Source: Deltaproteobacteria bacterium (GTDB lineage Bacteria > Desulfobacterota > Binatia > Binatales > Binataceae). From it: a DNA stretch of 64,000 bases. The stretch lies in the NCBI GenBank assembly GCA_021831785.1, contig JAKBMB010000021.1:8633-72632 (forward strand), written 5' to 3'. Below the pieces are notes generated by a model. That model saw nothing but the letters and a program-made list of their open reading frames with translations. It made no database searches and was not told the DNA's origin. The position numbers and the translations under genes are program-made. Shown here one piece after another: positions 13,016 through 52,719 of this stretch (position 1 is its first letter; each line of letters opens with the position of its first letter).

Positions 13016-13365
13016 GAGCTCCTTTTGCCGCTAAATCCCGCGTGACAGAAAAACGCTTTCGCGGCGCCCTGTTGTTCGGCCGCGAGCGGCGGCACCGGGC
13101 CGCCCGAGATCCATCTTCCGGTATCATAACCCGTGCCTCACGCGCGTTGCCACCGTGCCAAGTGCGACGCACTACCGGAAACTGCCTCGCCATTAGGGTT
13201 GCATCTTAGGCCAGCAGTTTGGCGACCGAATCGAGTAACGCGTTCGCGACCTTTTTGGTCGAGACGCTTTAACCAGTTATCGTGCCGTAGACGTCCATTG
13301 TCTACCTGATATCAGACGCCTCCGAGTACCCGCGAGACGCAGGCCGCCCCCTCCCAAAAACCACC

Positions 13366-14478
13366 ATGTTTAGCGATACGAGGCGTTGGAATGCTAAAGT
13401 TCCAGGCGTGAGCCATGAAAACCTAGCGACGATACGCGCGGTCGGTCGCGCCTTCCCGCCTAACTATATGCCGCAGCAAGTCGCGATCGACAATCTGCGC
13501 CAACATTGGTCGGCGCAAAGCGGGGCTGCGCGCCGGCTCTTACGTCTGCTAGAAACCTCGGGCGTACAAGGACGTTACCTTGCGCTTACGATCCCCGAAT
13601 ACCGCGAGCTCGACTCGTTCGCCAAAGCGAATCAAGCCTGGTTGCGGATCGCCGCCGAGCTGGCCGAGGCCGCGGCGCGCAACGCGCTGGCATGCACCTC
13701 GCTTAGGCCGCACGATATCGACCATATCTTTTTCGTCACCGGCACGGGGATAGCGACGCCGAGTTTAGACGCGCCCCTGATCAATAGGATGCGGATGCGC
13801 GCGGACGTTAAACGGACGCCGATCTTCGGCCTGGGCTGCGCCGGCGGGGCGGGCGCGGTGGCTCGCGCAGCCGATTATTTGCGGGCTTTTCCGCGGCACG
13901 TCGCCCTGGTGATATCGGTCGAGCTCTGCTCGTTGACGCTCCAGCGCGACGACACTTCGCCTGCGAACCTGATCGCTTCGACCTTGTTCGGCGACGGCGC
14001 CGCTTGCGTGGTGCTGTGCGGAAGCGAAGCGCCGGAGGCGGGCGATGTGTGCGTGGTCGATTCGCGTTCAACTTTTTATCACGATACCGAGCGCGTGATG
14101 GGATGGGACATAGTTGACTCCGGCTTCAAGATAGTAATGTCGTCGGAGATACCGAATCTGGTCCGCGCGAACCTGGCCAGCGAGGTTAACGCCTTTCTCA
14201 AGCGCCATGGGCTCGAACGCCGCTCGGTGCGCCACTGGATCCTGCACACCGGCGGGCCGCGGGTGCTCGAAGCCGTCGGCCAGGCGCTCGAGCTCGACAC
14301 ACAAACGCTGGAGCGGTCTTGGCGGCTGCTGGCCAAGGTCGGAAACGTTTCTTCAGCCTCCGTGCTGCTGGTCTTGGCCAGCCTGCTCGAATCCGGCGAA
14401 GCCCGCCCCGGCGATTACGGACTTATGATCGCGATGGGGCCGGGCTTTTGCGCTGAACTCGCCCTGCTTCGATGGTGA
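13366..14478 (+). CDS. type III polyketide synthase (chalcone/stilbene synthase superfamily)
   Basis: Catalytic Cys context FGLGCAGGAGAVARAADYL, His context WILHTGGPRVLE, Asn context GNVSSASVL and C-terminal GPGF. Confidence 0.85.
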   Translation: MFSDTRRWNAKVPGVSHENLATIRAVGRAFPPNYMPQQVAIDNLRQHWSAQSGAARRLLRLLETSGVQGRYLALTIPEYRELDSFAKANQAWLRIAAELAEAAARNALACTSLRPHDIDHIFFVTGTGIATPSLDAPLINRMRMRADVKRTPIFGLGCAGGAGAVARAADYLRAFPRHVALVISVELCSLTLQRDDTSPANLIASTLFGDGAACVVLCGSEAPEAGDVCVVDSRSTFYHDTERVMGWDIVDSGFKIVMSSEIPNLVRANLASEVNAFLKRHGLERRSVRHWILHTGGPRVLEAVGQALELDTQTLERSWRLLAKVGNVSSASVLLVLASLLESGEARPGDYGLMIAMGPGFCAELALLRW

Positions 14479-22605: not shown

Positions 22606-23339
22606 GACCCTTTGACCCGCAGCGGCTAGCCCGCAACGCAGCGAAAAAGGGCAGCCTCGCCCGGCGCAAGTGAGCTCCAGGCTGCGTGCCTGAGATTCCG
22701 AATCCGCAACCGAGGCGGCGGGGGCGCGCGATGCAAAGGCGGCAGTGAAAGAAGCTACACACATGAGCCCGGTTCCGGCAGTCACGATAGTGAAACTCGT
22801 TCTCAATCTCAATAGCGGCGCCAAATCGAAGGGCGGCTGCGTCGAGTGCACAAGCGGCCGAAGCCAGCCGCGCGGCAGGTGGGCGTCAGCGAACGAAGAA
22901 ACAGCGAGGAGAAAAGGTGCCGTCTTGGCTCGCTCGGGGCGCTGCCTTGCCCCCCGGCGAGCGAGCGGCGGACGGGCGTGCATAGCGAGGGCCGCGGGGC
23001 GAGCGCCCAAGCGGCGGCCGTCGAGCGTCTTGCTCAGCGCACGGGATGATTCTTAGTCAAGTGAAGAACGGGGCGAACAGAAAAACGGCGCGAGCGATAG
23101 AGGCATAATGGCGTTCCCGGAAAGAGCTTGCCGCTCCTGTGGGTCCGTTTTCATTGACAAATTGCACCTCAGAGGTGAATTTTGACAGCGACACGCAAAA
23201 CGCGGCACGCGATAGATAGGCGACGGCAAATGTGGCAGAGTTAACGGCGAGAATAAATTGCGACCCGGGGGCTCGATGAGGCCCGAGGAGCTCATTTACT
23301 CGGACACATACACGGCTTCGTGCCGGCAATAATGAGGCG

Positions 23340-26185: not shown

Positions 26186-26563
26186 ATGATCCCGGGAGAG
26201 TATCTGTTAGCCGAAGGTGAGATTATTGCCAACGCGGGCCGGCCGACGGTCGAGTCGGTGGTCGTCAATACCGGCGACCGGCCGATTCAGGTTGGCTCCC
26301 ACTTTCATTTCTTCGAGGTCAACCGGGCCCTGCGCTTTGACCGCGGCCAAGCCTTCGGTATGCGACTGAATATTCCGGCCGGCACCGCCGTGCGCTTCGA
26401 GCCTGGCGATGACAAGAAGGTCACGCTGGTCAAGCTCGGCGGAGCGGCGAGCGTATACGGGCTCAATGGGATCACCACCGGGCCGACCGGCGCATCGGCC
26501 AAGGACGCCGCGCTCGACCGAGCGCGAGCAGCGGGCTTTTTGAGGACACCCGATGAGTCTTAA
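26186..26563 (+). CDS. ureB: urease subunit beta
   Basis: [21 protein letters not shown]...[19 protein letters not shown] is canonical UreB. It carries a ~25-aa C-terminal extension that overlaps the ureC start. Confidence 0.95.
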
Positions 26564-28271
26564 GATTGCGCGCCGCCAGTACGCCGATCTTTATGGCCCT
26601 ACCGTCGGCGACCGCATTCGGCTGGCGGACACGGAAATTTTCATCGAGGTGGAGAAAGACCTCGCCGGCGGCGGTGACGAGGCCAAATTCGGCGGCGGCA
26701 AGGTGCTGCGCGACGGCATGGGGCAGTCCTCCCGCGCTACGACCGAGCAGGGCGTGCTCGACCTCGTGATTACCAACGCGGTGGTGCTCGATCATTGGGG
26801 AATCGTCAAGGCCGACATTGGAATCCGCGGCGGCCGGATCGTCGGCATCGGGAAAAGCGGCAACCCTGACACGATGGAAGGGGTGACGCGCGGGATGACG
26901 GTCGGCGCCGGCACCGAGGTCATCGCCGGCGAGGGCCGGATCATAACCGCGGGCGGGATCGACGCCCACGTTCACTTTATCTGTCCGCAACTGGCCGAGA
27001 CCGCGCTGGCGGCCGGCATCACGACGCTTATCGGCGGCGGCACCGGCCCGGCGACCGGCACCAACGCCACCACGTGCACGCCTGGGGCGTGGAACATCCA
27101 TCGCATGCTCGAGGCGGCCGAGGGGTTCGCGGTCAACCTGGGCTTTCTCGGTAAGGGCAATGCCTCGTTTCCGGCGCCGCTGCGCGAGCAGATCGAGGCC
27201 GGCGCAATCGGCCTCAAGCTCCACGAAGACTGGGGCACGACGCCGGCTGCGATCGATTGCGCCCTGTCGGTGGCCGAACAGTATGATGTCCAGGTGGCGA
27301 TCCACACCGACACGCTCAACGAGGCCGGTTTCGTCCAAGACTCGATCCGCGCGTTCCAGGGGCGCACGATTCACACCTATCACACCGAGGGCGCCGGCGG
27401 CGGGCACGCGCCCGATATTATCGCGGTGTGCGGCGAACCCAACTGCCTGCCGTCGTCGACCAATCCCACGATGCCGTTCACCGTCAACACCTTGGACGAG
27501 CATTTGGACATGTTGATGGTGTGCCATCATCTCGACGCGAAAATTCCCGAGGACGTGGCCTTCGCCGAATCGCGCATCCGCGCGGAAACCATCGCAGCCG
27601 AGGACGTGCTGCACGACCTCGGCGCGATCAGCATGATGTCGTCCGACTCCCAAGCGATGGGGCGGATCGGCGAGGTGATCATCCGCACCTGGCAGACGGC
27701 CGACAAGATGAAGCGCCAACGGGGACCGCTCGCGGGCGAGAACACGGGCAGCGATAACCTGCGCGCTCGCCGCTACGTCGCCAAGTACACGATCAACCCG
27801 GCGATCGCCCACGGTATCGCTCATGAGATAGGATCCATCGAGACCGGAAAATTTGCCGACCTAGTGGTCTGGAAGCCGGCGTTTTTCGGCGTCAAGCCGG
27901 AGCTGGTGATAAAGGGCGGCTTTATCGCGTGGTCGGCGATGGGCGATCCCAACGCCTCTATACCGACGCCCCAGCCGGTGATTTACCGTCCGATGTTCGG
28001 CGCCTTCGGCAACGCGCTGCGCTCGACCTCGCTGACCTTCGTCTCCGCGGCGGCGCTCGAGGCCGGGATTGCCGGCCGCTTGAAACTCAACAAGCGCGTT
28101 GTAGCGGTCCGCAAATGCCGTGGCCTAAGCAAGCGCGACATGGTCAACAACGACGCTTTGCCGACGATCGAGGTCAATCCGGAAACCTACGAAGTGCGTG
28201 CCGATGGCGAGCTCCTGACTTGCGAACCGGCTCGAGTGCTGGCGATGGCTCAGCGCTATTTTCTTTTCTGA
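26553..28271 (+). CDS. ureC: urease subunit alpha
   Basis: 572 aa with [52 protein letters not shown] and SSDSQAMGR. Confidence 0.97.
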
Positions 28272-38947: not shown

Positions 38948-39283
38948 TTAAAGATCAAGGTGAAGGCGCACGGCGTCTTCGGCCTTGCGCACAAGCGCGG
39001 GGCTGAGCCTGCCCAGCACGTTGCCGCGTAAGCGTTCCTTGGAGATGGTCCGAATCTGTTGAGCCTGAGCCTTAGAAGGTTTGGGCAGGTTGCTCTCCTT
39101 GGGCGAAAGCATAATTTCGAAAGGATAGACGCGGCTTACGTTGGAAGTGATGGGCAGGACGGTCACCGTGTTGCCCGCGCGGTTGTTCGCGTCGTTGCTC
39201 ACGATCAGCACCGGGCGGCGTTTGTTGATCTGGGAGCCGACCGTGAGGTTCAAGTCGGCGTAGTAGATTTCACCACGCCTCAT
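38948..39283 (-). CDS. mazF: type II toxin MazF/PemK family endoribonuclease
   Basis: MRRGEIYYADLNLTVGSQINKRRPVLIVSNDANNRAGNTVTVLPITSN is the classic PemK/MazF N-terminus. Confidence 0.88.
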   Translation of the reverse strand: MRRGEIYYADLNLTVGSQINKRRPVLIVSNDANNRAGNTVTVLPITSNVSRVYPFEIMLSPKESNLPKPSKAQAQQIRTISKERLRGNVLGRLSPALVRKAEDAVRLHLDL

Positions 39284-39491
39284 CGCCAAGTCCGTCCGCG
39301 GCCGTGTTCTCCCACTCCTTGTCGGACTCCGCACTAGCTTGCCGGTAAGCGGCCTCTAGCTCACGGCTCCTGAGGAGTCTAACCGCTTCCTCGAAAACCT
39401 GGGAACGGTTCAAGCCCCGTTTTTTTCGATAAGTCTCGACGAACCCGGCCAGCGAGTTGGGCAGCGAGGCGGAAAGCTTTGCCACGCTCAT
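39270..39491 (-). CDS. RHH-type antitoxin (MazE/CopG-like)
   Basis: MSVAKLSASLPNSLAGFVETYRKKRGLNRSQVFEEAVRLLRSRE is an RHH pattern. It overlaps the mazF start by 14 nt. Confidence 0.7.
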   Translation of the reverse strand: MSVAKLSASLPNSLAGFVETYRKKRGLNRSQVFEEAVRLLRSRELEAAYRQASAESDKEWENTAADGLGDEAW

Positions 39492-40232: not shown

Positions 40233-41378
40233 ATGGCGGGCTTGCATAGCCGCGATTCAGAGCCCTGGCGCGTAGGCGTGCTTTTTTCACGCAGCGGATG
40301 CACGGCCGTCATCGAAGAGACCCAGCTACGGGCGACCTTGCTTGCGCTGGCGGAAATCAACGACTCGGGGGGCATCAATGACCGCGAAATAGTTCCGGTC
40401 ATCTACGACCCGATGTCCGATCCAGCGACCTTTGCGTGTCATGCCAAGCGACTCATGGTTGAAGACAGTATCACCGCTATTTTCGGCTGCTACACCTCCA
40501 GCAGCCGAAAGGCCGTGATACCGGTGGTCGAGCGTCTCAACGGCCTGCTCTGGTATCCGACGCCTTACGAAGGCTTCGAATTTTCGCCCAACGTCATTTA
40601 CACCGGACCCGCGCCCAATCAGAACAGCGTTGCCCTGTGCCGCTTCCTGATGGAACGCTACGGCAGGCGCTTTTACCTGATCGGCTCGGACTACGTCTAC
40701 CCGCGCGAGTCCAACCGCATCATGCGTGAATTGGTGCGCAACAACGGGGGCGAAGTTTGCGGTGAGACCTATCTGAGCCTGCGCGCGCAGCATCGGGATT
40801 TCGTGCCGGTGTTGGGCGAGCTCAAACGCCTGCGGCCGGACGTGATTTTCTCGACCGTGGTTGGCGATTCCACAAGTTCTCTTTATCAAAGTTACATCGA
40901 CGCAGGTCTCGAGCCCAAGGTGATGCCGATCGGGAGCCTGACGACGACCGAGGCGGAGGTCAGGGCGATGGGCGCGGACGCCGCCGAGGGGCATGTCACG
41001 GCCGCCTCCTATTTCCAATCGGTTTGCACCGAGCAAAATTCTTTTTTTGTCGCCAGATACAAGAAGCGGTATGGGGAGGACGAGCCGACCAACATGTGCG
41101 CCGAAGCCGCCTATTTCCAGGTTCATATCTTCGCCAAGGCCCTGGCGCAGACGGATTCGCTCGACACCGACACTCTGCGTCCGGTGGTGCTGGGCACGGA
41201 ATTCGACGCGCCGCAAGGCAAGGTTTGCGTCAACGAGACCTACGCTCACACCGATCTGTGGACGCGCATCGGGCGCGTGGACAGCCGTGGCGGGTTCGAG
41301 ATTATCGAGGAATCCTGCGCGCAGGTGAACGCCGACCCGTACTTGATCGGCTCGGGAAGGGCGCTGGCTTGCAGCTAA
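40233..41378 (+). CDS. amiC: aliphatic amidase expression-regulating protein AmiC (amide sensor, PBP type 1 fold)
   Basis: [9 protein letters not shown].TAVIE...[44 protein letters not shown]...[18 protein letters not shown] is near-collinear with Pseudomonas aeruginosa AmiC as I recall it ([41 protein letters not shown]...IGSDYIYPRESN). Confidence 0.88.
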   Translation: [381 protein letters not shown]

Positions 41379-41421: not shown

Positions 41422-42012
41422 ATGACTTCAGCAGAGCGCTCGCTGCGCGCAGAGTTTGCCAAACTCGACGCGCTGGTCGCCGTGCCGCGCGACGATGACG
41501 GAGAGTTCCTAGTCCGCGAGTTGCAGCGTGCGCGGGCGCGTGTACGCCATGTCTGGCCGCTTCCGGACCGGCTGCCCGAGGACACCGACATAATCTTTTG
41601 CGCCCTTGAGCCGGGGCTGCCCGAGCGAATACCGTGGGTGCCCGGCGAGCCGAAAGCGGCGCTGACCGTGGTCGTCGCGCCGGGAGCCGCGCCGGACCTC
41701 GGCCTGCTGGTCAACAGCGCACCGGACGCCGTGCTGCACCGGCCGATCACGAGCAACGGTGTGTTGGTCAGCCTGGCGCTGGCGCGCAGTCACTTTACCT
41801 ACGACCGACGGCTGCGCTGGCGCATCAACAAGCTCGATGAGAGCCTTCGAGGGATGCGGGCGGTTGAACGGGCCAAGGAGATTCTGATGCGCACACGTCA
41901 GATGTGTGAAGAAGAGGCCTACCGGTTTATCCGCGGTCAGGCCATGAGGCGGCGCGCGCCGATTAGCGTTGTCGCGGCGGCGATAGTTGACTCACACGAC
42001 ATACTGAGCTAG
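41422..42012 (+). CDS. amiR: ANTAR-domain antiterminator AmiR
   Basis: C-terminal ANTAR: LRGMRAVERAKEILMRTRQMCEEEAYRFIRGQAMRRRAPISVVAAAIV. N-terminal pseudo-receiver. Position is directly after amiC. Confidence 0.85.
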   Translation: MTSAERSLRAEFAKLDALVAVPRDDDGEFLVRELQRARARVRHVWPLPDRLPEDTDIIFCALEPGLPERIPWVPGEPKAALTVVVAPGAAPDLGLLVNSAPDAVLHRPITSNGVLVSLALARSHFTYDRRLRWRINKLDESLRGMRAVERAKEILMRTRQMCEEEAYRFIRGQAMRRRAPISVVAAAIVDSHDILS

Positions 42013-42016
42013 GGGG

Positions 42017-42045
42017 TTGACTTACGCGAGATACTGCGCTAACTT
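42017..42045 (+). promoter_or_regulatory. candidate sigma70-type promoter of the amiE leader
   Basis: TTGACT (42017-42022), 17-nt spacer, TAACTT (42040-42045), immediately after the amiR stop. Confidence 0.4.
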
Positions 42046-42107
42046 AGCTCTGCCTCAGCTTAGCTGAGAGCAGCAGCGGCAACGGCGCCGCGCCAAAAAT
42101 TCAGGGC

Positions 42108-42160
42108 AAAGACGCCCTTGTGACGCCATCTCGATGGGCGACACAAGGGCGTCTTTTTTT
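42108..42160 (+). terminator. intrinsic terminator in the amiE leader (probable AmiR antitermination target)
   Basis: aaagacgcccttgtgacgcc-atctcgat-gggcgacacaagggcgtcttt followed by a T-run (to 42160), ~200 nt upstream of the amiE ATG. Confidence 0.75.
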
Positions 42161-42365
42161 GCGCAAGTCGAACGCGGCGAGCCGCGAGCGTATGGCGGAA
42201 ATGGCCGCCGGCTGTAGAAGAAGAGAATGGCTGTAGCTTGCGCGCAGTTGGTTGGAAAGCTCCGCCAACGCGTCGGCCCGGGCAGGCACGCTCAGGGTGG
42301 GCGTGATCGAGTCTGCTGACTAACGGTTAGGGTGTGAGCCCGATGACAATCGATGGAGGACAGAT

Positions 42366-43394
42366 ATGAGGCACGGAGACATTTCATCCAGCAAAGACTG
42401 TGTGGGCGTCGCTGTAGTGAACTACAAGATGCCGAGGTTACATACCAAGGTGGAGGTCCTCGAGAATGCCCGCCACATTGCCGAAATGATAGTGGGCATC
42501 AAGACCGGCCTGCCCGGGATGGACCTGATAATTTTCCCCGAGTACAGCACCCACGGCATCATGTACGACCAAAAGGAGATGATGGAGACCGCTTCCGTCG
42601 TTCCTGGCGAAGAGACCAACATTTTCGCCGCGGCCTGCCGCAAGGCCAACACCTGGGGCGTTTTCTCGCTTACCGGCGAGCGGCACGAGGAGCATCCGAA
42701 AAAGGCCCCGTACAACACGCTCATGCTGATGAATAACAGGGGCGAAATCGTCCAGAAGTACCACAAGATCAATCCCTGGTGTCCCATCGAAGGCTGGTAT
42801 CCCGGCAACTGCACGTACGTCTCGGAAGGCCCCAAGGGGCTCAAGATAAGTCTCATCGTTTGTGACGACGGCAACTACCCGGAAATCTGGCGCGACTGCG
42901 CGATGCGCGGGGCCGAACTCATCGTGCGCTGCCAGGGGTATATGTATCCGGCCAAGGAACAGCAGATTTTAGTCGCCAAGGCGATGGCCTGGATGAACAA
43001 CTCCTACGTCGCCGTGGCCAACGCTGCCGGTTTCGACGGGGTGTACTCGTATTTCGGCCATTCGGCCATCGTCGGCTTTGACGGGCGGACCCTGGCGGAG
43101 TGCGCCGAGGAGGAAAACGGCGTGCAGTATGCCGAGTTGTCGGTGTCAACTATCCGCGATGCGCGCAAAAACTGGCAGTCGCAGAACCACCTGTTCAAGC
43201 TTCTGCACCGCGGCTATACCGGGAAGATACTCTCGGAGGAAAGCTCGCTCGGCGTGGCCGAATGCCCGTTTGAGTTTTACCGCACCTGGGTAACCGACCC
43301 GGAAAAGGCCCGCAAGCAGGTCGAAAGCTTCACGCGCGAGACCGCCGGAACCCCGGAGTGCGAGATCGCGGGAATCCCGGCCAGAGCGGCCTGA
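42366..43394 (+). CDS. amiE: aliphatic amidase (nitrilase superfamily)
   Basis: [28 protein letters not shown]...[14 protein letters not shown]...[23 protein letters not shown]...[41 protein letters not shown]...[25 protein letters not shown] is nearly collinear with P. aeruginosa AmiE. The Glu-Lys-Cys triad context is present. Confidence 0.96.
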
Positions 43395-43541
43395 GTTTAC
43401 GGACAATGGTTCGCCAATCACACGGGGACTGAATTAATGAACTGGGGGAGCGGGTAGTTGGCTATGGGCAGGGCGGTACGGAAAAGGCCTTCAAGAACGC
43501 AGAAAGAAAGTAGCGAATCACCGAACACGAGGAGACGGACG

Positions 43542-45047
43542 ATGCCTAGCGCAGGAAACTCCCTGCTTGAAAAACGAAAATTGGATGCACTGAAACGGGG
43601 AATCCACCGGATTGGCGAAAAAAAGGCGACTCCGCCTTTTTCGATCCACGTCGTGGGAATCGGCAAGGCGGGTGCCGAGGTAATTGCACAGATTTTGAGG
43701 GATTCGTCGGACAGCGGCTTTCCGGGAGAAGCGCGGTTCACGGCGCTGGCGGTTGACATCGGCGACCAGTACCTGAAACCACTGCGGGAACTGGCTGCAA
43801 AGTCTCCGGTCGATCGCCTTCAACTGGAAACCGTAGCGCTAGAGGTGCCGGCGAAGGACGATTTTTTCGCGACGCTTCGCAGGTATCGAGAGTTCCTGAA
43901 GCTCGAGTACCCACGATACTATTGGAATCCTAATTACGAAGCGTGGGTTCCCTCGAGCATCGTCTTGCCTCGAGCGGGGGAGCACTTTTCCCGCGCGGTG
44001 GCCAAAGGTATCTATGGCCGAGCGTACTACGATGGCGACCGACCGATGGAGCAGGCCCTGCGACGATTTGGCGAAAGCGTGGACGCTACTCACACTCAGG
44101 CCGTAGTGTGTATAGTGTCAGGCTTGGGCGGGGGGACTGGAAGTGGAGTGCTAGTTGACTTGGCGCGCCATCTGACGAACGTGGTTTTCGGACGGAGGAT
44201 CCCCGTCGTTGGTATCGGGATTGCCCCGTGTGAAGGTGACGCGTCTGAGCACCGCGGCTCACGCCTGTTCCCAGTGCTCAACGAGTTGGATTGTCTGTGC
44301 GATCAGGAAAACAACCAGGGCGTCATGACGGTCTGGGGCGATCTCTACCGCAATCCTTTCACCGCGGGGTTTCTCATAGTCCCTGAGCAACCGGCTTGGC
44401 AGGCGACGAAGAATCTGGATGCCACGCATAAGCGCGTGGATGAAGAAGTGGCGACGTTCCTGACCGGCAACAAAGGAGTCAATCTGTTGGAGACGCTACA
44501 GCTCTTGAACTGGGTAGGTGCGCCGCCGACTCAGCATTCTGCCGCCCGCACCCAGTATGGTGCGCGATGGACTCATATTTTGGGATTCGTCGACGTTGAT
44601 GGCGGCATTAAAGGCGGACAGGAGTTGCGACAGCAGCTCGGACTACGCCCAAGTTACAAGGTTGATTTTCTCGAGATGCGTACCTCCGACCCTGCCGACA
44701 AGAAGGCACAAGGAGTTGGACAGACGCTGGGAAACGTGTTTTCGCCGTCGGCCGAACCCGAGATCGTTGGCGGTGGCAGGAAGGGTTCGCTCCAGTTTGT
44801 ATTACCATGTGCTGCTAAAATCAATCTGGACCTGTTCTTCCAAGCTCGCGCCGCGTACGACCGCAAATCCTGGGACGAGCGATTGCTCGACCATTCAATG
44901 TTGCTCGAACTAGGTGTGATGCTCTGTGAGCCGGCTATTAGATTCGAAGGGATGGCGGGTGAGTGCATATGGGGCTGTGCCTGTTGGGTAGTGGTGCCCT
45001 ATAAGTCCATTCGCGGACCGCAAGAGGGGGCGGAAGCTGCGGCATAG
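43542..45047 (+). CDS. tubulin-signature protein A (function unknown; paralogue of 45483..47135)
   Basis: N-terminal IHVVGIGKAGAEVIAQIL (GxGxxG after a beta-strand). VCIVSGLGGGTGSGVLVDLARHL carries the tubulin signature [SAG]GGTG[SA]G (nt 44127-44147). C-terminal EPAIRFEGMAGECIWGCACWVVVPY (Cys codons 44964-44984). Start set at ATG 43542, preceded by GGAGA. Confidence 0.8.
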   Translation: MPSAGNSLLEKRKLDALKRGIHRIGEKKATPPFSIHVVGIGKAGAEVIAQILRDSSDSGFPGEARFTALAVDIGDQYLKPLRELAAKSPVDRLQLETVALEVPAKDDFFATLRRYREFLKLEYPRYYWNPNYEAWVPSSIVLPRAGEHFSRAVAKGIYGRAYYDGDRPMEQALRRFGESVDATHTQAVVCIVSGLGGGTGSGVLVDLARHLTNVVFGRRIPVVGIGIAPCEGDASEHRGSRLFPVLNELDCLCDQENNQGVMTVWGDLYRNPFTAGFLIVPEQPAWQATKNLDATHKRVDEEVATFLTGNKGVNLLETLQLLNWVGAPPTQHSAARTQYGARWTHILGFVDVDGGIKGGQELRQQLGLRPSYKVDFLEMRTSDPADKKAQGVGQTLGNVFSPSAEPEIVGGGRKGSLQFVLPCAAKINLDLFFQARAAYDRKSWDERLLDHSMLLELGVMLCEPAIRFEGMAGECIWGCACWVVVPYKSIRGPQEGAEAAA

Positions 45048-45095
45048 ATTTACGGAAAGATACGGCAGAAATCCTTCTGACCAAGGAGATTAATT

Positions 45096-45422
45096 ATGCC
45101 TCTGGACTGGGCGCAGGTGAGAAAGAAATACGGCAAGGGAGTAAGTATTCCCACCGTTGCGGGCGGCAAATCGTTGCAGATTACCGGTGCGGACGATGAG
45201 GCGATCCACATTAAATCACCTCTGTGGACCGCCAAACTGAGCCGCAATAACCTCGAAAAAGCCGTCGAACTAATCGAACAGGGAGTCATAGCACGCGAAC
45301 CCGGCTTGTTTGTGGAAGATTACCGGGTTTACGTCGCCGACGAGCGCCCCACCTCGGCTGCGCACGTTCTGAAAGATCTGGGGTTTCTTGGAGAGGACAA
45401 GGGCTATCACGCGAGATGCTGA
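45096..45422 (+). CDS. 108-aa hypothetical protein (paralogue of 50913..51218)
   Basis: MPLDWAQVRKKYGKG...LSRNNLEKAVELIEQGVI...DYRVYVADERPTSAAHVLKDLGFL aligns along its whole length with the 101-aa ORF at 50913. Confidence 0.75.
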   Translation: MPLDWAQVRKKYGKGVSIPTVAGGKSLQITGADDEAIHIKSPLWTAKLSRNNLEKAVELIEQGVIAREPGLFVEDYRVYVADERPTSAAHVLKDLGFLGEDKGYHARC

Positions 45423-45482
45423 ACGACGGACACTAGGAACGACGGCTCAGTCAAAAATCGAGACCATAGGGAGGTCGAACAA

Positions 45483-47135
45483 ATGGCACAATCTTTATAT
45501 CATAGCTCTTCCGGGCAACAGTCTCCTCACTGCGTGAACGTGGTGGGAATCGGTAGAACTGGTGCCGGCTACGTTGACGCACTGCTTCGAACGGGAGAGA
45601 TCGAAGATTTTTTGGAAGACCCGCGCGCACGCTTTGCGGCTCTGATTGTGGACATCGGCAAACAAGATATGCAGCAGGCGATAGATTATGCCGCGGGCTT
45701 CAAGGACCGGCTGCGATCGAGAAATATTCCAGTGGAACGGTTTCATTTTGAAGCGGTGCCGCTTGAAGTCCCTGACCGAAATGAATTGTTCGGAACCTTA
45801 CGCCGCTACCGCGAGTTCCTAAAACTCGAATATCCCCGCTACTACTGGAATCCCAATTATGAAGCTTGGCTACCAGGCGATACCAAGGTTCCGGCAGCCG
45901 GTGAACATTTCCCCCGCGCCGTGGCCAAGGCCATTTATGGCCGAGCATACTACGACGGCGACCGACCCCTAGACGGCGCCTTGACACGGTTCGCCGCGCA
46001 CGTGCAGGGCGCAACTCTTCCATCGATGGTCTTGGTCTGCTTTGGTCTGGGAGGGGGCACCGGCAGCGGCATAGCGGTCGACCTCGCGCGCCATTTGTCG
46101 AACATCAAACTTGGCCGGCGCATACCAGTGATCGGAGTTGGCCAGCTCCCCTGCAGTGGAGACGCCGAGATCTACCGAGGCAGCAGCATTTTCCCCGCGC
46201 TTAATGAAATCGACTGCATGCTGGACGATGACAAGAACCAGGGAGTCATCACGGTCTGGGGGGACCTTTATCGCAGCCCGTTCACGGGGGGCTTTTTTGT
46301 CAATGCGACGGAGCATTCATATCAGCGCCTGCATTATTACACGAAAGCAGGCGACCCTGATGTGCGCAAGAAGATCCAACTTCAGGTGACCAACAAGTTC
46401 GTGCAGGATGCATTTTCGCGATTCGCCGTCCGCGATGAGGGGCGCGCTCTATTCCGAGCGTTGCGTCCGGCCGGTTTCACTGGGGCACCACACGAAAGGG
46501 TGAGCGGAAAATCGCGCAACTGGACGTTATACTATTTAGCGAAGCTCAGCCATCCAGGTGTGCAGGTTCTACCCGGCGAACCGCTAAGCAAGTGGCACAA
46601 GGTTCTCGGCCAGTGGGTCGAGCATATCTCTGACTATTCACCGGTCAATCAGGAGTTCCGAACCGATTTTGCCGAGCTTCATGCTTACGCGCCACGCGAG
46701 ATCGGACACGACTACCTTGACCAAATGCTCAAAGACAAGGTCACCTCGCAGTTTCTGGTGCCCGGAGACGATTCCTCACTGGTCATTGAGGACTTCGAGT
46801 TCTTCGACGAACTGACCTCGTACTGCGACATTATTCTGCCGGGTGCGGCAAAAACAGACCTGAACGTCTTCTGGCAGAGCCGCGACTTGTACGACAAAAA
46901 ATCCTGGGAAGAAAAACTGCTGGATCATTCCTGGTTACTTGAGTTGGGCGTGCTGTTGTCGGAACCGGCGATCCGGTTCGAAGGGATGGCGGGCGAGTGC
47001 CTATGGGGCTGCGCTTGCTGGGTGGTGGTTCCCTATGACCAGATGCGAGGCGAGAAGCTTCCGCCGCCGAATCGCAAATTAATTCTTGAACAGGGTATTG
47101 CCGCGATGACAAGGACGGTCGTCGCTACGCCATAA
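45483..47135 (+). CDS. tubulin-signature protein B (function unknown; paralogue of 43542..45047)
   Basis: VNVVGIGRTGAGYVDALL; LVCFGLGGGTGSGIAVDLARHL (nt 46050-46070); identical 25-aa block TLRRYREFLKLEYPRYYWNPNYEAW; C-terminal EPAIRFEGMAGECLWGCACWVVVPY (Cys codons 46998-47018). Confidence 0.8.
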   Translation: MAQSLYHSSSGQQSPHCVNVVGIGRTGAGYVDALLRTGEIEDFLEDPRARFAALIVDIGKQDMQQAIDYAAGFKDRLRSRNIPVERFHFEAVPLEVPDRNELFGTLRRYREFLKLEYPRYYWNPNYEAWLPGDTKVPAAGEHFPRAVAKAIYGRAYYDGDRPLDGALTRFAAHVQGATLPSMVLVCFGLGGGTGSGIAVDLARHLSNIKLGRRIPVIGVGQLPCSGDAEIYRGSSIFPALNEIDCMLDDDKNQGVITVWGDLYRSPFTGGFFVNATEHSYQRLHYYTKAGDPDVRKKIQLQVTNKFVQDAFSRFAVRDEGRALFRALRPAGFTGAPHERVSGKSRNWTLYYLAKLSHPGVQVLPGEPLSKWHKVLGQWVEHISDYSPVNQEFRTDFAELHAYAPREIGHDYLDQMLKDKVTSQFLVPGDDSSLVIEDFEFFDELTSYCDIILPGAAKTDLNVFWQSRDLYDKKSWEEKLLDHSWLLELGVLLSEPAIRFEGMAGECLWGCACWVVVPYDQMRGEKLPPPNRKLILEQGIAAMTRTVVATP

Positions 47136-47248
47136 CTGTTCCGGGGAAAGCCGTTAGCTGTGCCAAGCCGCCGACGGCTTTCATTCCACGAAAGGGGTGA
47201 GGGTGACGACGCCCCGCGGAGTTGCGCTCACCCCCGGGTGACCGAAGC

Positions 47249-48244
47249 ATGAGTCAGCAGAGCTATATGCGAGGTCAGCGAGTTGACCATCGGATTCCGG
47301 TCACGGTTGTAACCGGGTTTCTAGGGTCGGGTAAAACGACCTTGGTCAACCACATCCTCAGCGCTAGGCACGGTCAGAAGGTTGCTGTCATCGTAAATGA
47401 GTTCGGTCAAGTTAGTATTGATGGCCAGCTTGTCGTTCGTGACGAGAATGAGCAGCTTATCGAATTCAACAATGGCTGCCTCTGTTGCACGGTGCGGGGC
47501 GATCTGATCGCGACCTTGGGACGACTAACCCAGCGGGCTGGTCAGCTCGACGGGATTCTGATCGAAACCACAGGGCTGGCGGATCCCGCGCCGGTGGCCT
47601 CGACCTTCTTTGTTTCTAACGAGGTCAAATCGGCCATCCGACTTGATTCGTTCATTACCGTCGTTGACCCGGTTAACTTGGAACACAATCTGCGCAGCAA
47701 CGAAGCCGTCGAGCAAATCGCCTTCGCGGATATCATTCTGATTAACAAGATTGACTTGGCTTCCGCCGCGGACCTGGAGCGCGTGGAGAGAAAAATCCGG
47801 ACGTTCAATCCGATGGCGACGATTCATCACACGTGCCAAGGAGTGGTCGATCTCAGTTTGATCATTGACACGGGCGCCTTCGAGTTGGAGGCGAAACTTC
47901 AGGTCGATCCTACCTTTCTGGACAACTTGCAGCATCAGCATGATCTATCGGTCGGCTCCTTCGTAGTTTATGAGGAGCGACCCGTCGACATCAATAAGTT
48001 TATGCTGTGGATGCAGTCGGTCCTTGCCGAGAACGGCCAAGACGTCTATCGGACTAAGGGTTTGTTTTATGCTAGAGGGTTCCCAGAGCGCTTGGTCTTC
48101 CAGAGTGTTCGGATGCTTACCTCTATGCGGCCGGATCGCGTTTGGCGGCCCAGCGAACGGAAACGCACAGAGTTTGTGGTGATAGGCCGCAGCCTGGATC
48201 GCGCCGCGTTCCAGCAAGGTTTAGCAGCGTGTGTCGCGACTTGA
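47249..48244 (+). CDS. COG0523 (CobW/YjiA/Nha3-type) G3E-family metallochaperone GTPase
   Basis: P-loop VTVVTGFLGSGKTTLVNHIL, IVNEFG, the metal-binding GCLCCTVRGDL (CxCC), ETTGLADP and INKIDL. C-terminal CobW_C-like domain. Confidence 0.88.
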   Translation: MSQQSYMRGQRVDHRIPVTVVTGFLGSGKTTLVNHILSARHGQKVAVIVNEFGQVSIDGQLVVRDENEQLIEFNNGCLCCTVRGDLIATLGRLTQRAGQLDGILIETTGLADPAPVASTFFVSNEVKSAIRLDSFITVVDPVNLEHNLRSNEAVEQIAFADIILINKIDLASAADLERVERKIRTFNPMATIHHTCQGVVDLSLIIDTGAFELEAKLQVDPTFLDNLQHQHDLSVGSFVVYEERPVDINKFMLWMQSVLAENGQDVYRTKGLFYARGFPERLVFQSVRMLTSMRPDRVWRPSERKRTEFVVIGRSLDRAAFQQGLAACVAT

Positions 48245-48247
48245 AGC

Positions 48248-48706
48248 GTGGTCCTGCTGCGGGACATCTTGGGGAGTCGCGCAACGATGACTTTTGAAAT
48301 GGCGGCTTCCGAAACGTCCAGCGACGCTCGGCGAGGTTCCTCGAGGAGGCTCCCTGGCGACCCTCCGTATATTTATGAAGCTCACGTGTTCTGTTGCATA
48401 AACGAACGCCCTGACGGCCACTTGCGAGGCTGCTGTGCGGGCAAAGGCGCGCGGCAACTCTGCGATTACATGTGCAGGCGTGCGATGGCGCTTGGCCTCA
48501 CCCAGGGGACTTGCCGAATACGGATCAATCACGCTGGCTGCCTTAATCTTTGTGAATTCGGACCCGTGATGATCGTTTATCCTGAAGGTGTGGCTTATTC
48601 CTACCGTAGCGATGAGGATATCGAGGAGATACTACGCAAGCATTTGATACTGGGAAGGCGCGTTGAGCATCTAGTTCTCCGCATCGACCCGGGCAAGCTT
48701 CACTGA
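48248..48706 (+). CDS. thioredoxin-like [2Fe-2S] ferredoxin domain protein
   Basis: HVFCCINER...GCCAGKGA...INHAGCLNLCEFGPVMIVYPEGVAY shows the Cys spacing and GP..V.P motif of thioredoxin-like 2Fe-2S ferredoxins. The start within the first ~15 codons is uncertain. Confidence 0.75.
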   Translation: MVLLRDILGSRATMTFEMAASETSSDARRGSSRRLPGDPPYIYEAHVFCCINERPDGHLRGCCAGKGARQLCDYMCRRAMALGLTQGTCRIRINHAGCLNLCEFGPVMIVYPEGVAYSYRSDEDIEEILRKHLILGRRVEHLVLRIDPGKLH

Positions 48707-48729: not shown

Positions 48730-49047
48730 ATGTACATCGATAGCCGAATCCAGCTATTTGATTCGATCGCGTGGACGGACATCGCGACTCATACTTACGA
48801 GCGGGTATCGCGCACGAGATGGCGTGTCAAGATCCGCCTTGTGTGTGGCGCTGAGATGATATTGGAAAACATACCTGACGACCTCATCCAATGTCTTGTG
48901 GTCGGGGCTTTCAATTCCGGGAAGTCATTCGACACTAACATTACAAGCGGCGTCGCGATGGATAAAGCCCGGTTTCCAAACCCGGCGGGTACCTGGTCGG
49001 AGATCCAGAATGTTATCCTGGCGGGCGCCGCACAAGTGAGCAGCTGA
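48730..49047 (+). CDS. hypothetical protein (105 aa)
   Basis: ORF tightly packed between the ferredoxin and the permease genes on the same strand. No motif recognised. Confidence 0.5.
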   Translation: MYIDSRIQLFDSIAWTDIATHTYERVSRTRWRVKIRLVCGAEMILENIPDDLIQCLVVGAFNSGKSFDTNITSGVAMDKARFPNPAGTWSEIQNVILAGAAQVSS

Positions 49048-49056
49048 AATCCGCAT

Positions 49057-50217
49057 ATGGAAACGCTGTGTGGTTCTTCTGGGCGAAGGACTTTGAAATC
49101 CAAAGCCGCCGTACCCGCGGGTTCGGGCGGAACGGATGAACTTGGTTTGAGCTCGATCTCGCAGTCAACCTCGCCACCGCGTTTGAAGCTGCTGGTGGGG
49201 GGGCTCGTTCTGTTCAATTTGTTGAGTTGGATAGTGTTCGCGGTGGTGGGGCGCGCCTACCACAGCATGCTCTGGACAGGGGTGCTGGCGTATTCCCTCG
49301 GTTTGCAGCATGCGTTCGATGCCGATCACATTGCAGCGATCGATAATGTTACGCGCAAACTTCGACAGGACGGCCAGAGGCCCGTCGCCGTTGGGTTCTT
49401 CTTCGCGTTAGGGCATTCCGTGGTTGTCTATGTGCTTTCGCTGGGCTTAGTAATGCTGGTAAGTGGGCCTTTTGGCATGGGGCGCTCGGCGCAAGCACTT
49501 GGCTATCTTATTAGTCGCGTGGCCTCGGCCGGTTTTTTGACGATCATCGGGCTTCTCAATCTCGTGGTCGTACGGCATCTTTGGCTGCAGTTGCGCGCGA
49601 ACCAGGGCAATTCGAGCCGCACGGCCACTGTGGCGCACGCAGCCAAAGCGACGGCGCTGAGCGGAGCCTACGGCCGCCTGGTGCTTTTTTTCCAACGCCA
49701 TATCGACGCGAGCTGGAAGATGCTTCTGGTTGGCATGCTCTTCGCCGTCGGGTTCGATACGGCCTCCGAAGCTGCGCTTTTTGGCGTATCCACTGCCACT
49801 GCGGCCGGCCAGCACATCGCGTTGTGGGCGGTAATGCTGCTGCCGCTGCTCTTCGCAGCGGGGATGACCCTAGTAGACAGCGCCGACGGGATTCTGATGG
49901 CAAAAGCGTACGATTGGGCGAGTGGTGACATAAACGCCAAACTCATTTTCAACCTCACCATCACGTGGATGTCTGTGTTAGTGGCTTTCAGTGTGGCCGG
50001 GATCGAGTGGCTGCAGCTCTTCAGCCACCGATTGCAACTGACGGGCCCCATCTGGACCGCGGTCATAGAATTGAACTTCGAGACACTCGGGTTCTTTATT
50101 GTAGGTCTGATGCTCACTACGTGGGCCGTGGCGGCGCTTTACTGTAAGCGCAGCCGAGTCCCCTCAGCATTCACGGAATTGTCCACTGGGGCAATCGAGA
50201 CTGAATACGATAGGTAA
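49057..50217 (+). CDS. NiCoT (HoxN/HupN/NixA/NhlF) family nickel/cobalt permease
   Basis: Signature LQHAFDADHIAAIDNVTRKL (HA.DADHI), FALGHSVVV (LGHS..V) and GFDTASE, in a multi-TM protein. Confidence 0.88.
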   Translation: METLCGSSGRRTLKSKAAVPAGSGGTDELGLSSISQSTSPPRLKLLVGGLVLFNLLSWIVFAVVGRAYHSMLWTGVLAYSLGLQHAFDADHIAAIDNVTRKLRQDGQRPVAVGFFFALGHSVVVYVLSLGLVMLVSGPFGMGRSAQALGYLISRVASAGFLTIIGLLNLVVVRHLWLQLRANQGNSSRTATVAHAAKATALSGAYGRLVLFFQRHIDASWKMLLVGMLFAVGFDTASEAALFGVSTATAAGQHIALWAVMLLPLLFAAGMTLVDSADGILMAKAYDWASGDINAKLIFNLTITWMSVLVAFSVAGIEWLQLFSHRLQLTGPIWTAVIELNFETLGFFIVGLMLTTWAVAALYCKRSRVPSAFTELSTGAIETEYDR

Positions 50218-50912: not shown

Positions 50913-51218
50913 ATGGTTCCACTGGATTGGAACATGGTGAAAGAGAAGTACAAGCCAGGTACCAAAGTTCGCCACATAGTTGGGTCACGGGCTTTCGAGA
51001 TCCTCAGGGTAACTGAGGAAGCGATTTACTTCAAATGGGGCGCTGTCCCCGAAGGAGCAATACATCGTTCTCATCTTGAACGAATCGTGGAGCTGATCGA
51101 AGAGGGGGTTGTGCGCCCTGACCAAGTGACACTTACGAGCGACTACAGGACCTTAGTCTCTGACGAGCGCCCGACCACAGCGATCGGCGTTCTCAAGGAC
51201 CTCGGGTACGTTCGATAA
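50913..51218 (+). CDS. 101-aa hypothetical protein (paralogue of 45096..45422)
   Basis: MVPLDWNMVKEKYKPG...IHRSHLERIVELIEEGVV...DYRTLVSDERPTTAIGVLKDLGYV. GGAGG lies 6 nt before the ATG. Confidence 0.75.
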   Translation: MVPLDWNMVKEKYKPGTKVRHIVGSRAFEILRVTEEAIYFKWGAVPEGAIHRSHLERIVELIEEGVVRPDQVTLTSDYRTLVSDERPTTAIGVLKDLGYVR

Positions 51219-51297: not shown

Positions 51298-52719
51298 TTG
51301 CCAAAGACGGCAGATACACTGGCCATGGTGAACATTTTAGACGGCCTCAACTCGATGCCTTGGGTGTCATTGGGACGACTGCCCAATGGTTGGGTGATCG
51401 AACTAGCGCAGATTCCACCAAGAGATAAATTTAAATATTCGTATGACTTGTGGTCGAACGGTCTTGCCTTCGAGGCCTTCGGTATCGCAAGGACGTACAA
51501 GGCAACTATTCGAGCCGCCGGTTACGGCGATGGGTTATGGCTCCTCAACTTCGACACCCAAGGAAGACTCCTTAACGCATCGTACACCGGTGCTCGGTGG
51601 GGTCCGTTTGAAATCTCGGCGCCGACGCAAGATTTCAGCCTGCTTGCTTATCCTCGCTATCGCCCGGAAATACACCGTCTGATCGGCGGGACGTGGCTAC
51701 GAGCAAAGTGGATCGATAAGTACGAGAGTAGCCACCTAACGTATCGCCTCGAAATCGTGGAAGCGCAAGATGCCCTCTATCAAGCCGCCATGCGTACTTT
51801 GGACGACTTCGTCAGGGCTTTATCTGCCATGAATACGCAGCAAAACGACCCATTGACCGAACGCCTTCTCGACGCGTTCCGAAAGTTGCCCCTCAGGACG
51901 CATACCGAATTGGACGCGGAGGCGGCAAGATTTCACGAGATACTCGGAATCAGCGGCCACATCCCCGTGGAACCCCCCGAGCTGGCCCTCGACCATTACC
52001 ACGCCATCCCGCTCAAGGTTCAAGATGGATGCGGAGGTCTTTGTACATTTTGTAGCTTGTACGGGCGGAAGATCCGAATCGCTCCGGTGGAGCTGGTCTT
52101 TCGTCAGATTGACTTGATGGCCGAATACTTAGGTGAAGAATTGGATCACTTTACCAAGGTTGCCTTACTGCAAGGTGATGCCCTCGTTGTTCCCCCCGAA
52201 ACCCTCGCCCGAGAGCTCGAGTACGCAAGGGAGAAGTTTGCGCTCAGTTCATCCTCAGCGTTCGCTCACGCCTTCGCAAAGGCCACAACGGTGGCACGGG
52301 CACCAGTACCCCAACTAGTGAACCTCAAGAAGAGAGGTTTGCTCCACGTCAACCTCGGTCTCGAAAGCGGTTGTCAAGATGTCCTTAACCTGGTGAAAAA
52401 AGGCCAGGAACTCAGCGAATTCCACGGCGCCGTATCTGCCCTCTGCGAAGCCGGGATCGGCGTAAGCGTCAACATCATCCTTGGAGTGGGCGGCCTAAAA
52501 TTCAAGGAGCGACACGTCCAAGAGACCGTTGAGTTCGTGCGAAGCCTTCCCAGTGCCGTTACTGTTTTCTACTCACCTCTCCAGATCGCCTCTACTTCAT
52601 ACTATGTTCGAAACCAGGAATCTAGCTTCGGCAGATTGTCGGACAGCGACATGATCGAGCAAGAAAACGTCTTTCAGAGAGAGCTTGGCGCCTATAAGTA
52701 TCTATTTGTCCCTATCTAG
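51298..52719 (+). CDS. radical SAM protein with a ~240-aa N-terminal extension of unknown type
   Basis: CX3CX2C motif DGCGGLCTFCSLYG (nt 52030-52053), then VNLGLESG and IILGVGG, typical of the radical SAM core. The start is uncertain (ATG 51298 or 51325). Confidence 0.8.
   Translation: MPKTADTLAMVNILDGLNSMPWVSLGRLPNGWVIELAQIPPRDKFKYSYDLWSNGLAFEAFGIARTYKATIRAAGYGDGLWLLNFDTQGRLLNASYTGARWGPFEISAPTQDFSLLAYPRYRPEIHRLIGGTWLRAKWIDKYESSHLTYRLEIVEAQDALYQAAMRTLDDFVRALSAMNTQQNDPLTERLLDAFRKLPLRTHTELDAEAARFHEILGISGHIPVEPPELALDHYHAIPLKVQDGCGGLCTFCSLYGRKIRIAPVELVFRQIDLMAEYLGEELDHFTKVALLQGDALVVPPETLARELEYAREKFALSSSSAFAHAFAKATTVARAPVPQLVNLKKRGLLHVNLGLESGCQDVLNLVKKGQELSEFHGAVSALCEAGIGVSVNIILGVGGLKFKERHVQETVEFVRSLPSAVTVFYSPLQIASTSYYVRNQESSFGRLSDSDMIEQENVFQRELGAYKYLFVPI

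Follow-up and report, generated by a model that had tools for sequence, protein, structure and literature searches.

A pair of diverged paralogous genes in the genome of a Deltaproteobacteria bacterium (family Binataceae; GenBank assembly GCA_021831785.1, contig JAKBMB010000021.1) most probably encodes the two large subunits of a cobalt nitrile hydratase (NHase) of the acetonitrile hydratase (ANHase) type, with a predicted tubulin/FtsZ fold; the 108-amino-acid (108-aa) gene that splits the pair would encode an AnhE-type cobalt chaperone. The DNA analysed, hereafter the window, is a stretch of 64,000 nucleotides (nt), in which the three genes follow one another with intergenic gaps of 48 nt and 60 nt. 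Fold, homology, operon conservation and co-variation of site residues were computed in this analysis, while nitrile hydration, cobalt and the role of AnhE are taken from the literature on the enzyme of Rhodococcus jostii RHA1. The three genes are as follows.

43542..45047, forward strand: first tubulin-fold subunit (AnhA-type), 501 aa, 54.9 kDa, with a complete composite site (see below)
45096..45422, forward strand: small AnhE-type subunit or chaperone, 108 aa, with a nearly invariant C-terminal Arg-Cys
45483..47135, forward strand: second tubulin-fold subunit (AnhB-type), 550 aa, 61.9 kDa, with a complete composite site

The longest open reading frame (ORF) of the first gene opens at 43458; the public gene call (P0121, 501 aa) starts at 43542, in agreement with the start chosen in a preliminary description made from the sequence alone. 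That description had also proposed a paralogue pair with an identical 25-aa block, a GGGTGSG loop and a Cys-rich tail. The two proteins align by BLASTP with 225 identities in 517 positions (44%, E = 4e-136), and every motif named is found at its place.

T1-like G-I-G-(K/R)-x-G-A, first protein: aa 39-45, nt 43656-43676
T1-like G-I-G-(K/R)-x-G-A, second protein: aa 22-28, nt 45546-45566
Identical 25-aa block TLRRYREFLKLEYPRYYWNPNYEAW, first protein: aa 111-135, nt 43872-43946
Identical 25-aa block TLRRYREFLKLEYPRYYWNPNYEAW, second protein: aa 105-129, nt 45795-45869
GGGTGSG (T4), first protein: aa 196-202, nt 44127-44147
GGGTGSG (T4), second protein: aa 190-196, nt 46050-46070
VWGDLY, first protein: nt 44331-44348
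VWGDLY, second protein: nt 46254-46271
Cys module GMAGEC(I/L)WGCACWVVVPY, first protein: aa 470-487, nt 44949-45002
Cys module GMAGEC(I/L)WGCACWVVVPY, second protein: aa 501-518, nt 46983-47036

Divergence is uneven along the pair, as had been described for its centre and its C-terminal end: only 27 of 165 positions are identical in the centre (residues 291-455), against 50 of 68 in the C-terminal module (residues 456-523). By the Nei-Gojobori method the proportion of synonymous differences (pS) is about 0.75 in every region compared, meaning that synonymous sites are saturated, and the nonsynonymous distance (dN) is 0.49 overall, 0.20 in the C-terminal module and 0.05 in the block. The last value was computed on 25 codons beginning one codon past the block as first delimited (LRRY...AW plus V/L), a stretch in which 18 of 75 nucleotides differ, nearly all of them silently. 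Purifying selection rather than recent gene conversion, as first suggested, is borne out by these values; because synonymous sites are saturated while dN is low in the common segments, the pair is the product of an old duplication whose common segments have been held by selection. Separate orthologues of each copy occur in many phyla, and the resemblance between the two is therefore far beyond chance.

The closest link to an enzyme of known activity leads to plasmid pRHL2 of RHA1, where one locus encodes a MarR protein, an AmiC-like protein, an aliphatic amidase, proteins of 514, 99 and 568 aa, a helix-turn-helix (HTH) protein and a nickel/cobalt transporter. By tblastn the window proteins match across their length, with 44% identity to RS41530 (residues 41-526 of the 529-aa window ORF), 45% for the small protein (residues 1-108) and 51% to RS41540 (residues 1-550), in the same large-small-large order. 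Passages in PMC3511329 and PMC7193024 describe the RHA1 ANHase as a nitrile hydratase that contains cobalt and acts on small aliphatic nitriles, encoded in the gene order alpha-AnhE-beta, with AnhE serving as a cobalt metallochaperone. Computed masses for RS41530, RS41535 and RS41540 are 55.8, 11.1 and 63.0 kDa, and RS41535 has a single His. The original abstracts (Okamoto & Eltis 2007; Okamoto et al. 2010) reportedly give subunits of 56 and 63 kDa, genes on pRHL2, and an 11.1-kDa AnhE with a "sole histidine"; masses and His thus agree with RS41530, RS41535 and RS41540, which are probably anhA, anhE and anhB. Cobalt is said to reside in AnhA, which fits the first Rhodococcus subunit being the one that bears the site described below. 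Because homology and gene order match the pRHL2 unit, the window genes are filed as putative anhA-type, anhE-type and anhB-type genes. An earlier reading from gene context alone, that of a convergent analogue of nitrile hydratase, was superseded by the RHA1 plasmid copy and the ANHase literature.

The resemblance to the RHA1 system extends to the neighbours (aliphatic amidase, AmiC-like protein, nickel/cobalt permease) and to the block, the VWGDLY segment and the Cys motif of its site-bearing subunit. The differences are that RHA1 has the site in its first subunit only, whereas both window subunits carry it, that the RHA1 small protein ends without the Arg-Cys, that a MarR regulator stands where the window has AmiR, that the window has in addition a [2Fe-2S] ferredoxin and a GTPase of the COG0523 type, and that the N-terminus of the Rhodococcus subunit bearing the site is a His-rich tail absent from the window protein (MPDHGHDHGHNHD... 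in L085 at 12127-13671, which is RHA1 pRHL2, and MSGLHSHDHGHSH... in L086 at 12130-13674).

Membership of the tubulin superfamily, proposed from the glycine loop, is upheld by profile and structure comparison. Against Pfam model PF00091 (Tubulin; cut-off 33 bits) the first protein scores 36.6 bits, above the cut-off, and the second 27.2 bits, below it; precomputed PF00091 matches exist for most homologues. Matches of the pair to Tubulin_2 (PF13809) are weak, Pfam returned no Tubulin_C or FtsZ_C match in the window proteins, and NCBIfam gave the pair no useful family assignment. Sequence and profile searches of the PDB reach just CetZ and an Asgard tubulin, around H3-T4-S5. An AlphaFold2 model of the second protein, made from a 72-sequence alignment covering both paralogue types, has a mean predicted local distance difference test (pLDDT) of 86.9 and a predicted template modelling score (pTM) of 0.90. 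When the model was compared with the PDB by Foldseek, the 50 best matches listed were all CetZ, TubZ, FtsZ or tubulin, at probability 1.0 and E values from 3e-10 to 2e-8, with target-normalised TM scores of 0.46-0.65 and tubulin chains at 10-12% identity. Since these alignments span 439-593 columns, the predicted structure comprises the GTPase domain as well as the C-terminal one, joined by the core helix H7; the GTPase fold on which the preliminary description had staked its tubulin signature is the one that the model returns. RefSeq already names some family members "tubulin-like domain-containing protein".

Within this fold the family has its own features. Both window proteins carry both the GGGTGSG and the GIG(K/R)xGA signature, and the leading T4 glycines vary within the family (AGGTGSG, NGGTGSG, GESTGSG, DSVGNG). 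T7-loop-like catalytic residues had been put forward as something to look for, and no NxDxx(D/E) motif of that type was found past H7 (residues 328-346) of the second protein, a poorly conserved region with pLDDT partly below 50 in which a G-A-P motif alone is kept. Two additions are foreign to tubulins: about 95 extra C-terminal residues ending in E-C-x-W-G-C-A-C-W, and a much enlarged, aromatic-rich loop in the T3 region, which is the 25-aa block. In common with CetZ, FtsZ, TubZ and the tubulins (BtubA/B included), at 10-15% identity, the window proteins have the two domains, the T1 G-x-G-x-x-G and T4 GGGTGSG loops, the H3 (A-K-x-x-Y) and S5/T5 (LPxSxD) segments, and the arrangement as a paralogous pair of which one partner is often degenerate; the absent T7 loop, the expanded T3, the extra Cys module and the catabolic, metal-linked operon set them apart.

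Co-variation across the family ties the two additions together. A scan of one genome per species gave 193 relatives, of which 80 genome loci were kept for comparison, and 151 family members were sorted into three groups: those with the Cys motif, those without it, and truncated paralogues. At 31 positions the residue is common to at least 93% of the Cys-bearing subunits, and at the majority of these to all of them; the Cys-less subunits have lost these residues, which fall in exactly three segments.

Block, F103-E127: F103, R110, E111, K114, R119, Y120, Y121, W122, N123, P124, N125, E127
VWGDLY segment, M246-Y263: M246, V258, W259, D261, Y263
C-terminal Cys module, W475-Y518: W475, L479, W484, A496, I497, F499, E505, C506, W508, C510, A511, C512, V515, Y518

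In Gram-negative and cyanobacterial loci the second subunit keeps the Cys motif in 69 of 70 cases, and the first subunit keeps it in 31 loci and has lost it in 37. A rule that the second subunit always carries the Cys site was considered and fails in Rhodococcus, where the situation is reversed: all three segments are intact in the first subunit and all are lost from the second. The co-variation is thus replicated independently by a loss in the opposite partner, from which it follows that the three segments form a single functional site, needed in at least one subunit of each pair. The complete composite site is present in both large subunits of the window, and its residues are those of the RHA1 site-bearing subunit except for a conservative W508L. 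The Cys motif singled out in the preliminary description is thus conserved in homologues and functionally coupled to the 25-aa block, and the composite site is presumably a cobalt-thiolate catalytic centre. The C-x3-C-x-C tail had been noted as unfamiliar from any tubulin or FtsZ family; we read it as the metal-site module of the ANHase-type enzyme family, which would explain why. Short matches to residues 449-527, considered as a possible stand-alone Cys-module family, look like gene fragments.

A second set of residues follows a different pattern. The T1/T4 glycines G22, G24, G27, G194 and G196, universal across the family, are kept in all paralogues together with D200, R203, H204, D244 and D248, and the family has therefore retained the nucleotide pocket, or its architecture at the least, independently of the Cys site. 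In tubulin the T3 loop senses the gamma-phosphate; as the 25-aa block occupies the T3 position, the metal site may lie beside the nucleotide pocket. The retained pocket could be a structural cofactor site, a maturation switch or a vestige.

The unit recurs widely and in a constant form. The 80 loci span Alpha-, Beta- and Gammaproteobacteria (many of them sponge or lichen symbionts), numerous Cyanobacteria and one Alicyclobacillaceae (Firmicute), and the order of first, small and second subunit is kept wherever the DNA is sufficient; the two large subunits behave as obligate partners. A COG0523 gene lies near the unit in most of the loci, and it follows the second subunit in most of those with sufficient downstream DNA. 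About half of the loci have amiE copies, 75-82% identical, near the unit, and amiC and amiR are recurrent too. Five kinds of cobalt/nickel importer accompany the unit, among them the mutually unrelated NicO, CbtA/CbtB, CbiM/CbiN and HupE/UreJ, and a ferredoxin occurs in roughly half of the loci, is absent from the cyanobacterial ones, and has DUF1636 as an alternative neighbour. Further recurrent neighbours are a peroxiredoxin, a DUF255 thioredoxin-fold protein, ABC transporters of the urea/amide type and acetyl-CoA synthetase. Amidase, metal chaperone and cobalt importers around the unit make up the gene company of a cobalt metalloenzyme acting on nitriles or amides, not that of a cytoskeleton. 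Additional plasmid copies lie on pNit of R. rhodochrous BAA-870 and in R. qingshengii, R. aetherivorans, R. pyridinivorans, Agrobacterium and Brucella anthropi, and there is a further copy in Natronocella acetinitrilica. A HMMER scan of 1.84 billion representatives found just 188 related clusters, so the family is compact and sharply delimited.

About 30 loci add genes for a CbbQ/NorQ-type AAA+ protein and a VWA protein, often together with a third, C-terminally truncated paralogue of roughly 380-460 aa from which the whole Cys module is missing (L004, 14253-15515; L010, 16541-17932; L075, 14739-16088; L087, 16625-17773; and others). It has the specific surface residues of the second subunit (277-313, 354-378 and 439-445) and, usually adjoining the CbbQ/NorQ AAA+ and VWA genes, may be a maturation factor. 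In five loci (L001, L029, L041, L064 and L068) a canonical cobalt-type NHase alpha subunit with the motif VCTLCSCYPWP is encoded a few kb from the unit; in four of the five, L041 being the exception, a separate ORF corresponds to the N-terminal half only of NHase beta, and L064 and L068 each have two COG0523 genes, one beside each enzyme.

In the window the genes form a tightly spaced series on the forward strand, running from the amiC-like gene through amiR, a leader, amiE, the first subunit, the small gene, the second subunit, COG0523, ferredoxin and a 105-aa ORF to a NiCoT permease gene. Beyond the three genes already given, the features are these.

40233..41378, forward strand: amiC-like amide-sensor or periplasmic-binding-fold regulator (Peripla_BP_5, 454 bits)
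41422..42012, forward strand: amiR, ANTAR antiterminator (Pfam AmiR_N and ANTAR)
42108..42160, forward strand: candidate AmiR-controlled terminator in the amiR-amiE leader, a long perfect hairpin followed by a T7 run
42366..43394, forward strand: amiE, aliphatic amidase of the nitrilase superfamily (NCBIfam PRK13286, 696 bits against a cut-off of 427)
47222..48244, forward strand: COG0523 (CobW/YjiA-like) G3E GTPase, presumed metal chaperone (Pfam cobW, 200 bits, and CobW_C)
48248..48706, forward strand: thioredoxin-like [2Fe-2S] ferredoxin, start codon uncertain (NCBIfam fdxn_Azotob, 68.6 bits, below the 195-bit cut-off)
48730..49047, forward strand: conserved 105-aa ORF with no family match in Pfam or NCBIfam
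49057..50217, forward strand: NiCoT (HoxN/NhlF-type) nickel/cobalt permease (Pfam NicO, 234.7 bits; NCBIfam nico, 270.6 bits)
50913..51218, forward strand: small-subunit paralogue, 101 aa, lacking the C-terminal Cys, 41% identical to the product of 45096-45422; membership in the system uncertain
51298..52719, forward strand: radical SAM protein, directly after the small-subunit paralogue (Pfam Radical_SAM, 50.7 bits)

The amiC-like gene recurs beside the unit in many loci, and homologues of the 105-aa ORF (44-55% identity) lie near it in six (L003, L007, L008, L010, L014 and L028). The COG0523 gene falls below every NCBIfam equivalog cut-off and for that reason represents a separate subfamily. 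Homologues of the small protein that could be aligned are all 108 aa long and 60-85% identical, and more than 90% end in Arg-Cys; its AlphaFold2 model (pLDDT 88.9) shows a small beta-barrel plus three helices, for which no structural neighbour was found in the PDB. The 353-nt leader (42013-42365) has an RNA folding z score of -3.4 and forms a perfect long stem followed by U7, a candidate terminator on which AmiR would act by antitermination. No Rfam match, to a riboswitch or other RNA, was obtained in the operon, and a promoter and terminator scan of the operon gave results no better than shuffles. The claw motif of canonical NHases, C-(S/T)-L-C-S-C, does not occur in any of the six frames of the window, and neither Pfam nor NCBIfam matched any window protein to an NHase alpha or beta family.

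We propose that cobalt would enter through the NiCoT permease and be handed by the COG0523 GTPase and the AnhE-type protein to the Cys site, where E505, C506, C510 and C512 with the surrounding aromatic residues would form the cobalt centre. Redox control of the metal or the thiols may fall to the [2Fe-2S] ferredoxin, and perhaps also to the peroxiredoxin. The enzyme would hydrate short aliphatic nitriles to amides, nitrile hydration being the reaction in the RHA1 literature; AmiE would then split the amide product into acid and ammonia, and AmiC and AmiR would switch the operon on through the leader terminator.

Canonical cobalt and iron NHases (NthA/NthB) and thiocyanate hydrolase offer a close parallel in organisation, with an amidase, an amide-responsive regulator, COG0523 or a small activator, an NhlF-type permease, and a heteromer with a cluster of three Cys; presumably they also share the reaction and the use of cobalt. 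They have, however, no sequence or fold relationship to the window proteins, their subunits are about 23-26 kDa rather than 55-63 kDa, and their motif is C-(S/T)-L-C-S-C, in contrast to C-x3-C-x-C within E-C-x-W-G-C-A-C-W. The Cys site would thus be analogous in function to the canonical claw, not homologous to it.

Several points weigh against assigning the window pair to ANHase. Activity and cobalt are known from the Rhodococcus enzyme only, and function in the window is assigned by homology, with identity to RHA1 at just 44-51%. The accessories also differ: COG0523 and ferredoxin are present in the window, neither was seen in the incomplete Rhodococcus gene tables, and tblastn found no COG0523 gene in Rhodococcus regions of about 30 kb. 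Substrate range or maturation may therefore differ. Equating the pRHL2 genes with anhA, anhE and anhB draws on gene order, function as given in secondary papers, masses and details reported in abstracts. Canonical NHases stand beside the unit in five loci, where its role could be other than nitrile hydration. That the three co-varying segments meet in space, close to the nucleotide pocket, is a prediction from co-variation and sequence position. Finally, a passage in PMC7193024 reports ANHase with Co, Cu and Zn, which leaves the metal stoichiometry of the Cys site ambiguous.

Some of these points leave an opening, albeit a narrow one, for the same enzyme family performing another reaction here, a cobalt or Fe-S enzyme that makes an amide from a different small nitrogen compound, such as an aldoxime, isonitrile, cyanide or hydroxamate, with the ferredoxin as possible electron donor. 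The recurrence of [2Fe-2S] ferredoxin or DUF1636, peroxiredoxin and DUF255 thioredoxin beside the unit would suit such chemistry, as would three Cys that could, with the C-terminal Cys of the small protein, hold an Fe-S cluster, the setting among nitrogen-scavenging genes such as urease, and the canonical NHases of the five loci, beside which another hydratase could be superfluous. The near-identity of the site residues with those of RHA1, W508L apart, nevertheless speaks for an unchanged chemistry; the unit is accompanied by importers specific for cobalt (CbiMN, CbtAB), not by iron or sulphur genes; and Rhodococcus, with neither a ferredoxin nor a C-terminal Cys on its small protein, yet encodes an active enzyme. 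Redundancy is also a weak objection in that two NHases per strain are common, an example being the H- and L-NHase of R. rhodochrous J1.

A cytomotive, GTP-driven heterodimer that forms filaments like alpha/beta-tubulin or BtubA/B, the Cys tail being a structural or regulatory metal site, is very improbable. The preliminary description had drawn this comparison, and its structural half stands: the tubulin/FtsZ fold is genuine in both domains, the T1/T4 loops are conserved in every paralogue, Cys-less ones included, and paired paralogues with one degenerate partner do recall alpha/beta-tubulin. Its cytoskeletal half is not supported. No T7-type catalytic loop is found, in a region of poor conservation and low confidence; T4 drifts to GESTGSG or DSVGNG in cyanobacterial members; the constant linkage is to amidase, metal chaperone and cobalt importers, a nitrile/amide metal operon, rather than to division, segregation or membrane genes; and the RHA1 orthologues, the cobalt enzyme, were purified as a soluble enzyme according to passages in PMC3511329 and PMC7193024. 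A cobalt storage, sensing or delivery scaffold for another client (a canonical NHase or B12 synthesis) can practically be dismissed, for although the COG0523, CbtAB, DUF1636 and CbbQ/VWA neighbours resemble the cobalt-supply genes of B12 clusters and the Rhodococcus protein has its His-rich tail, most loci, all cyanobacterial ones included, lack any other candidate metal client or cob genes, the window has no B12 riboswitch, some 30 highly conserved polar and aromatic site residues fit catalysis better than storage, and passages in PMC3511329 and PMC7193024 describe the RHA1 protein as an enzyme.

An ANHase-type nitrile hydratase therefore remains the preferred reading, and the window genes belong to a known, experimentally characterised but little-studied enzyme family. 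In the literature searched, no paper was found linking ANHase, nitrile hydratase or amidase operons, cobalt or COG0523 to the tubulin/FtsZ fold, and a survey of COG0523 contains no mention of a tubulin-fold/amidase context. The fold assignment, the definition of the composite site, the reciprocal degeneration of the subunits and the wide distribution all seem to be new. To our knowledge no relatives had been recognised for the "novel" cobalt nitrile hydratase of RHA1; this orphan now gains a structural identity, a candidate active site, candidate maturation factors and what appears to be a widespread family of more than 1000 sequence clusters, with members in Cyanobacteria, sponge and lichen symbionts, rhizobia, Burkholderiales, Acidobacteria-like bacteria and Rhodococcus plasmids. 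Nitriles or related compounds would supply nitrogen to groups in which nitrile hydratases are not usually expected, and a "tubulin-like domain-containing protein" annotated beside amiE should not be taken for a cytoskeletal gene. The family is, moreover, a naturally occurring case of a paralogous heteromer whose non-catalytic partner can be either of the two.

More speculatively, and with the balance tilting somewhat against so full a picture, ANHase-type NHases might constitute a catalytic, non-cytoskeletal branch of the tubulin/FtsZ superfamily, the first enzyme known on this fold, with a cobalt site built from the enlarged T3-region loop and the C-terminal Cys claw next to the universally kept nucleotide pocket, GTP or GDP either structural or coupled to cobalt insertion or catalysis, a longitudinal heteromer of the tubulin type that retains one active site or both according to lineage, and the truncated third paralogues and CbbQ/VWA proteins as maturation factors. 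If true, evolution would have put the tubulin/FtsZ fold to use in metal-dependent catalysis.

Other divergent prokaryotic offshoots of the superfamily, FtsZl1/Tubulin_2 (PF13809) and FtsZl2, resemble the window system in that divergence and in the VWA genes near some loci. FtsZl1 proteins exceed 800 aa, with coiled coils, in membrane-linked operons with VWA, OmpA and kinase genes, and FtsZl2 are single genes of 722-746 aa with no conserved neighbours (Makarova & Koonin 2010, PMC2875224). Membership in either was rejected on length (501 and 550 aa, in a pair), architecture and context, measured against those descriptions; the Cys module and the amidase/cobalt context are missing from both. A group of proteins of about 880 aa (858-916 aa; P0280, P0287 and about a dozen others) shares the N-terminal domain alone with the pair, at 26-34% identity, followed by a coiled coil. 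They end in HSFL(I/L)E(Q/H)GV, reminiscent of HSWLLELGV, and are probably FtsZl1-type relatives.

The pair of small-subunit paralogue and radical SAM gene found in the window recurs in L052 (45-2483, minus strand), where a truncated third tubulin-fold paralogue follows; in the window nothing recognisable lies downstream of the radical SAM gene. Upstream of the operon, a urease alpha subunit is encoded at 26553-28271 on the forward strand, and the ORFs after it, to about 32130, are probable accessory genes of the urease. In the sponge-symbiont loci L012-L016, too, the unit is flanked by urease genes, which suggests a shared nitrogen-scavenging neighbourhood. A 128-aa ORF on the reverse strand at 38948-39334 (RGEIYYADL...KRRPVLIVSNDANN) resembles by eye a toxin of the MazF/PemK type. 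At 20080-23010, also on the reverse strand, lies a gene for a TonB-dependent receptor with an N-terminal CarboxypepD_reg domain, an architecture common in Acidobacteriota.

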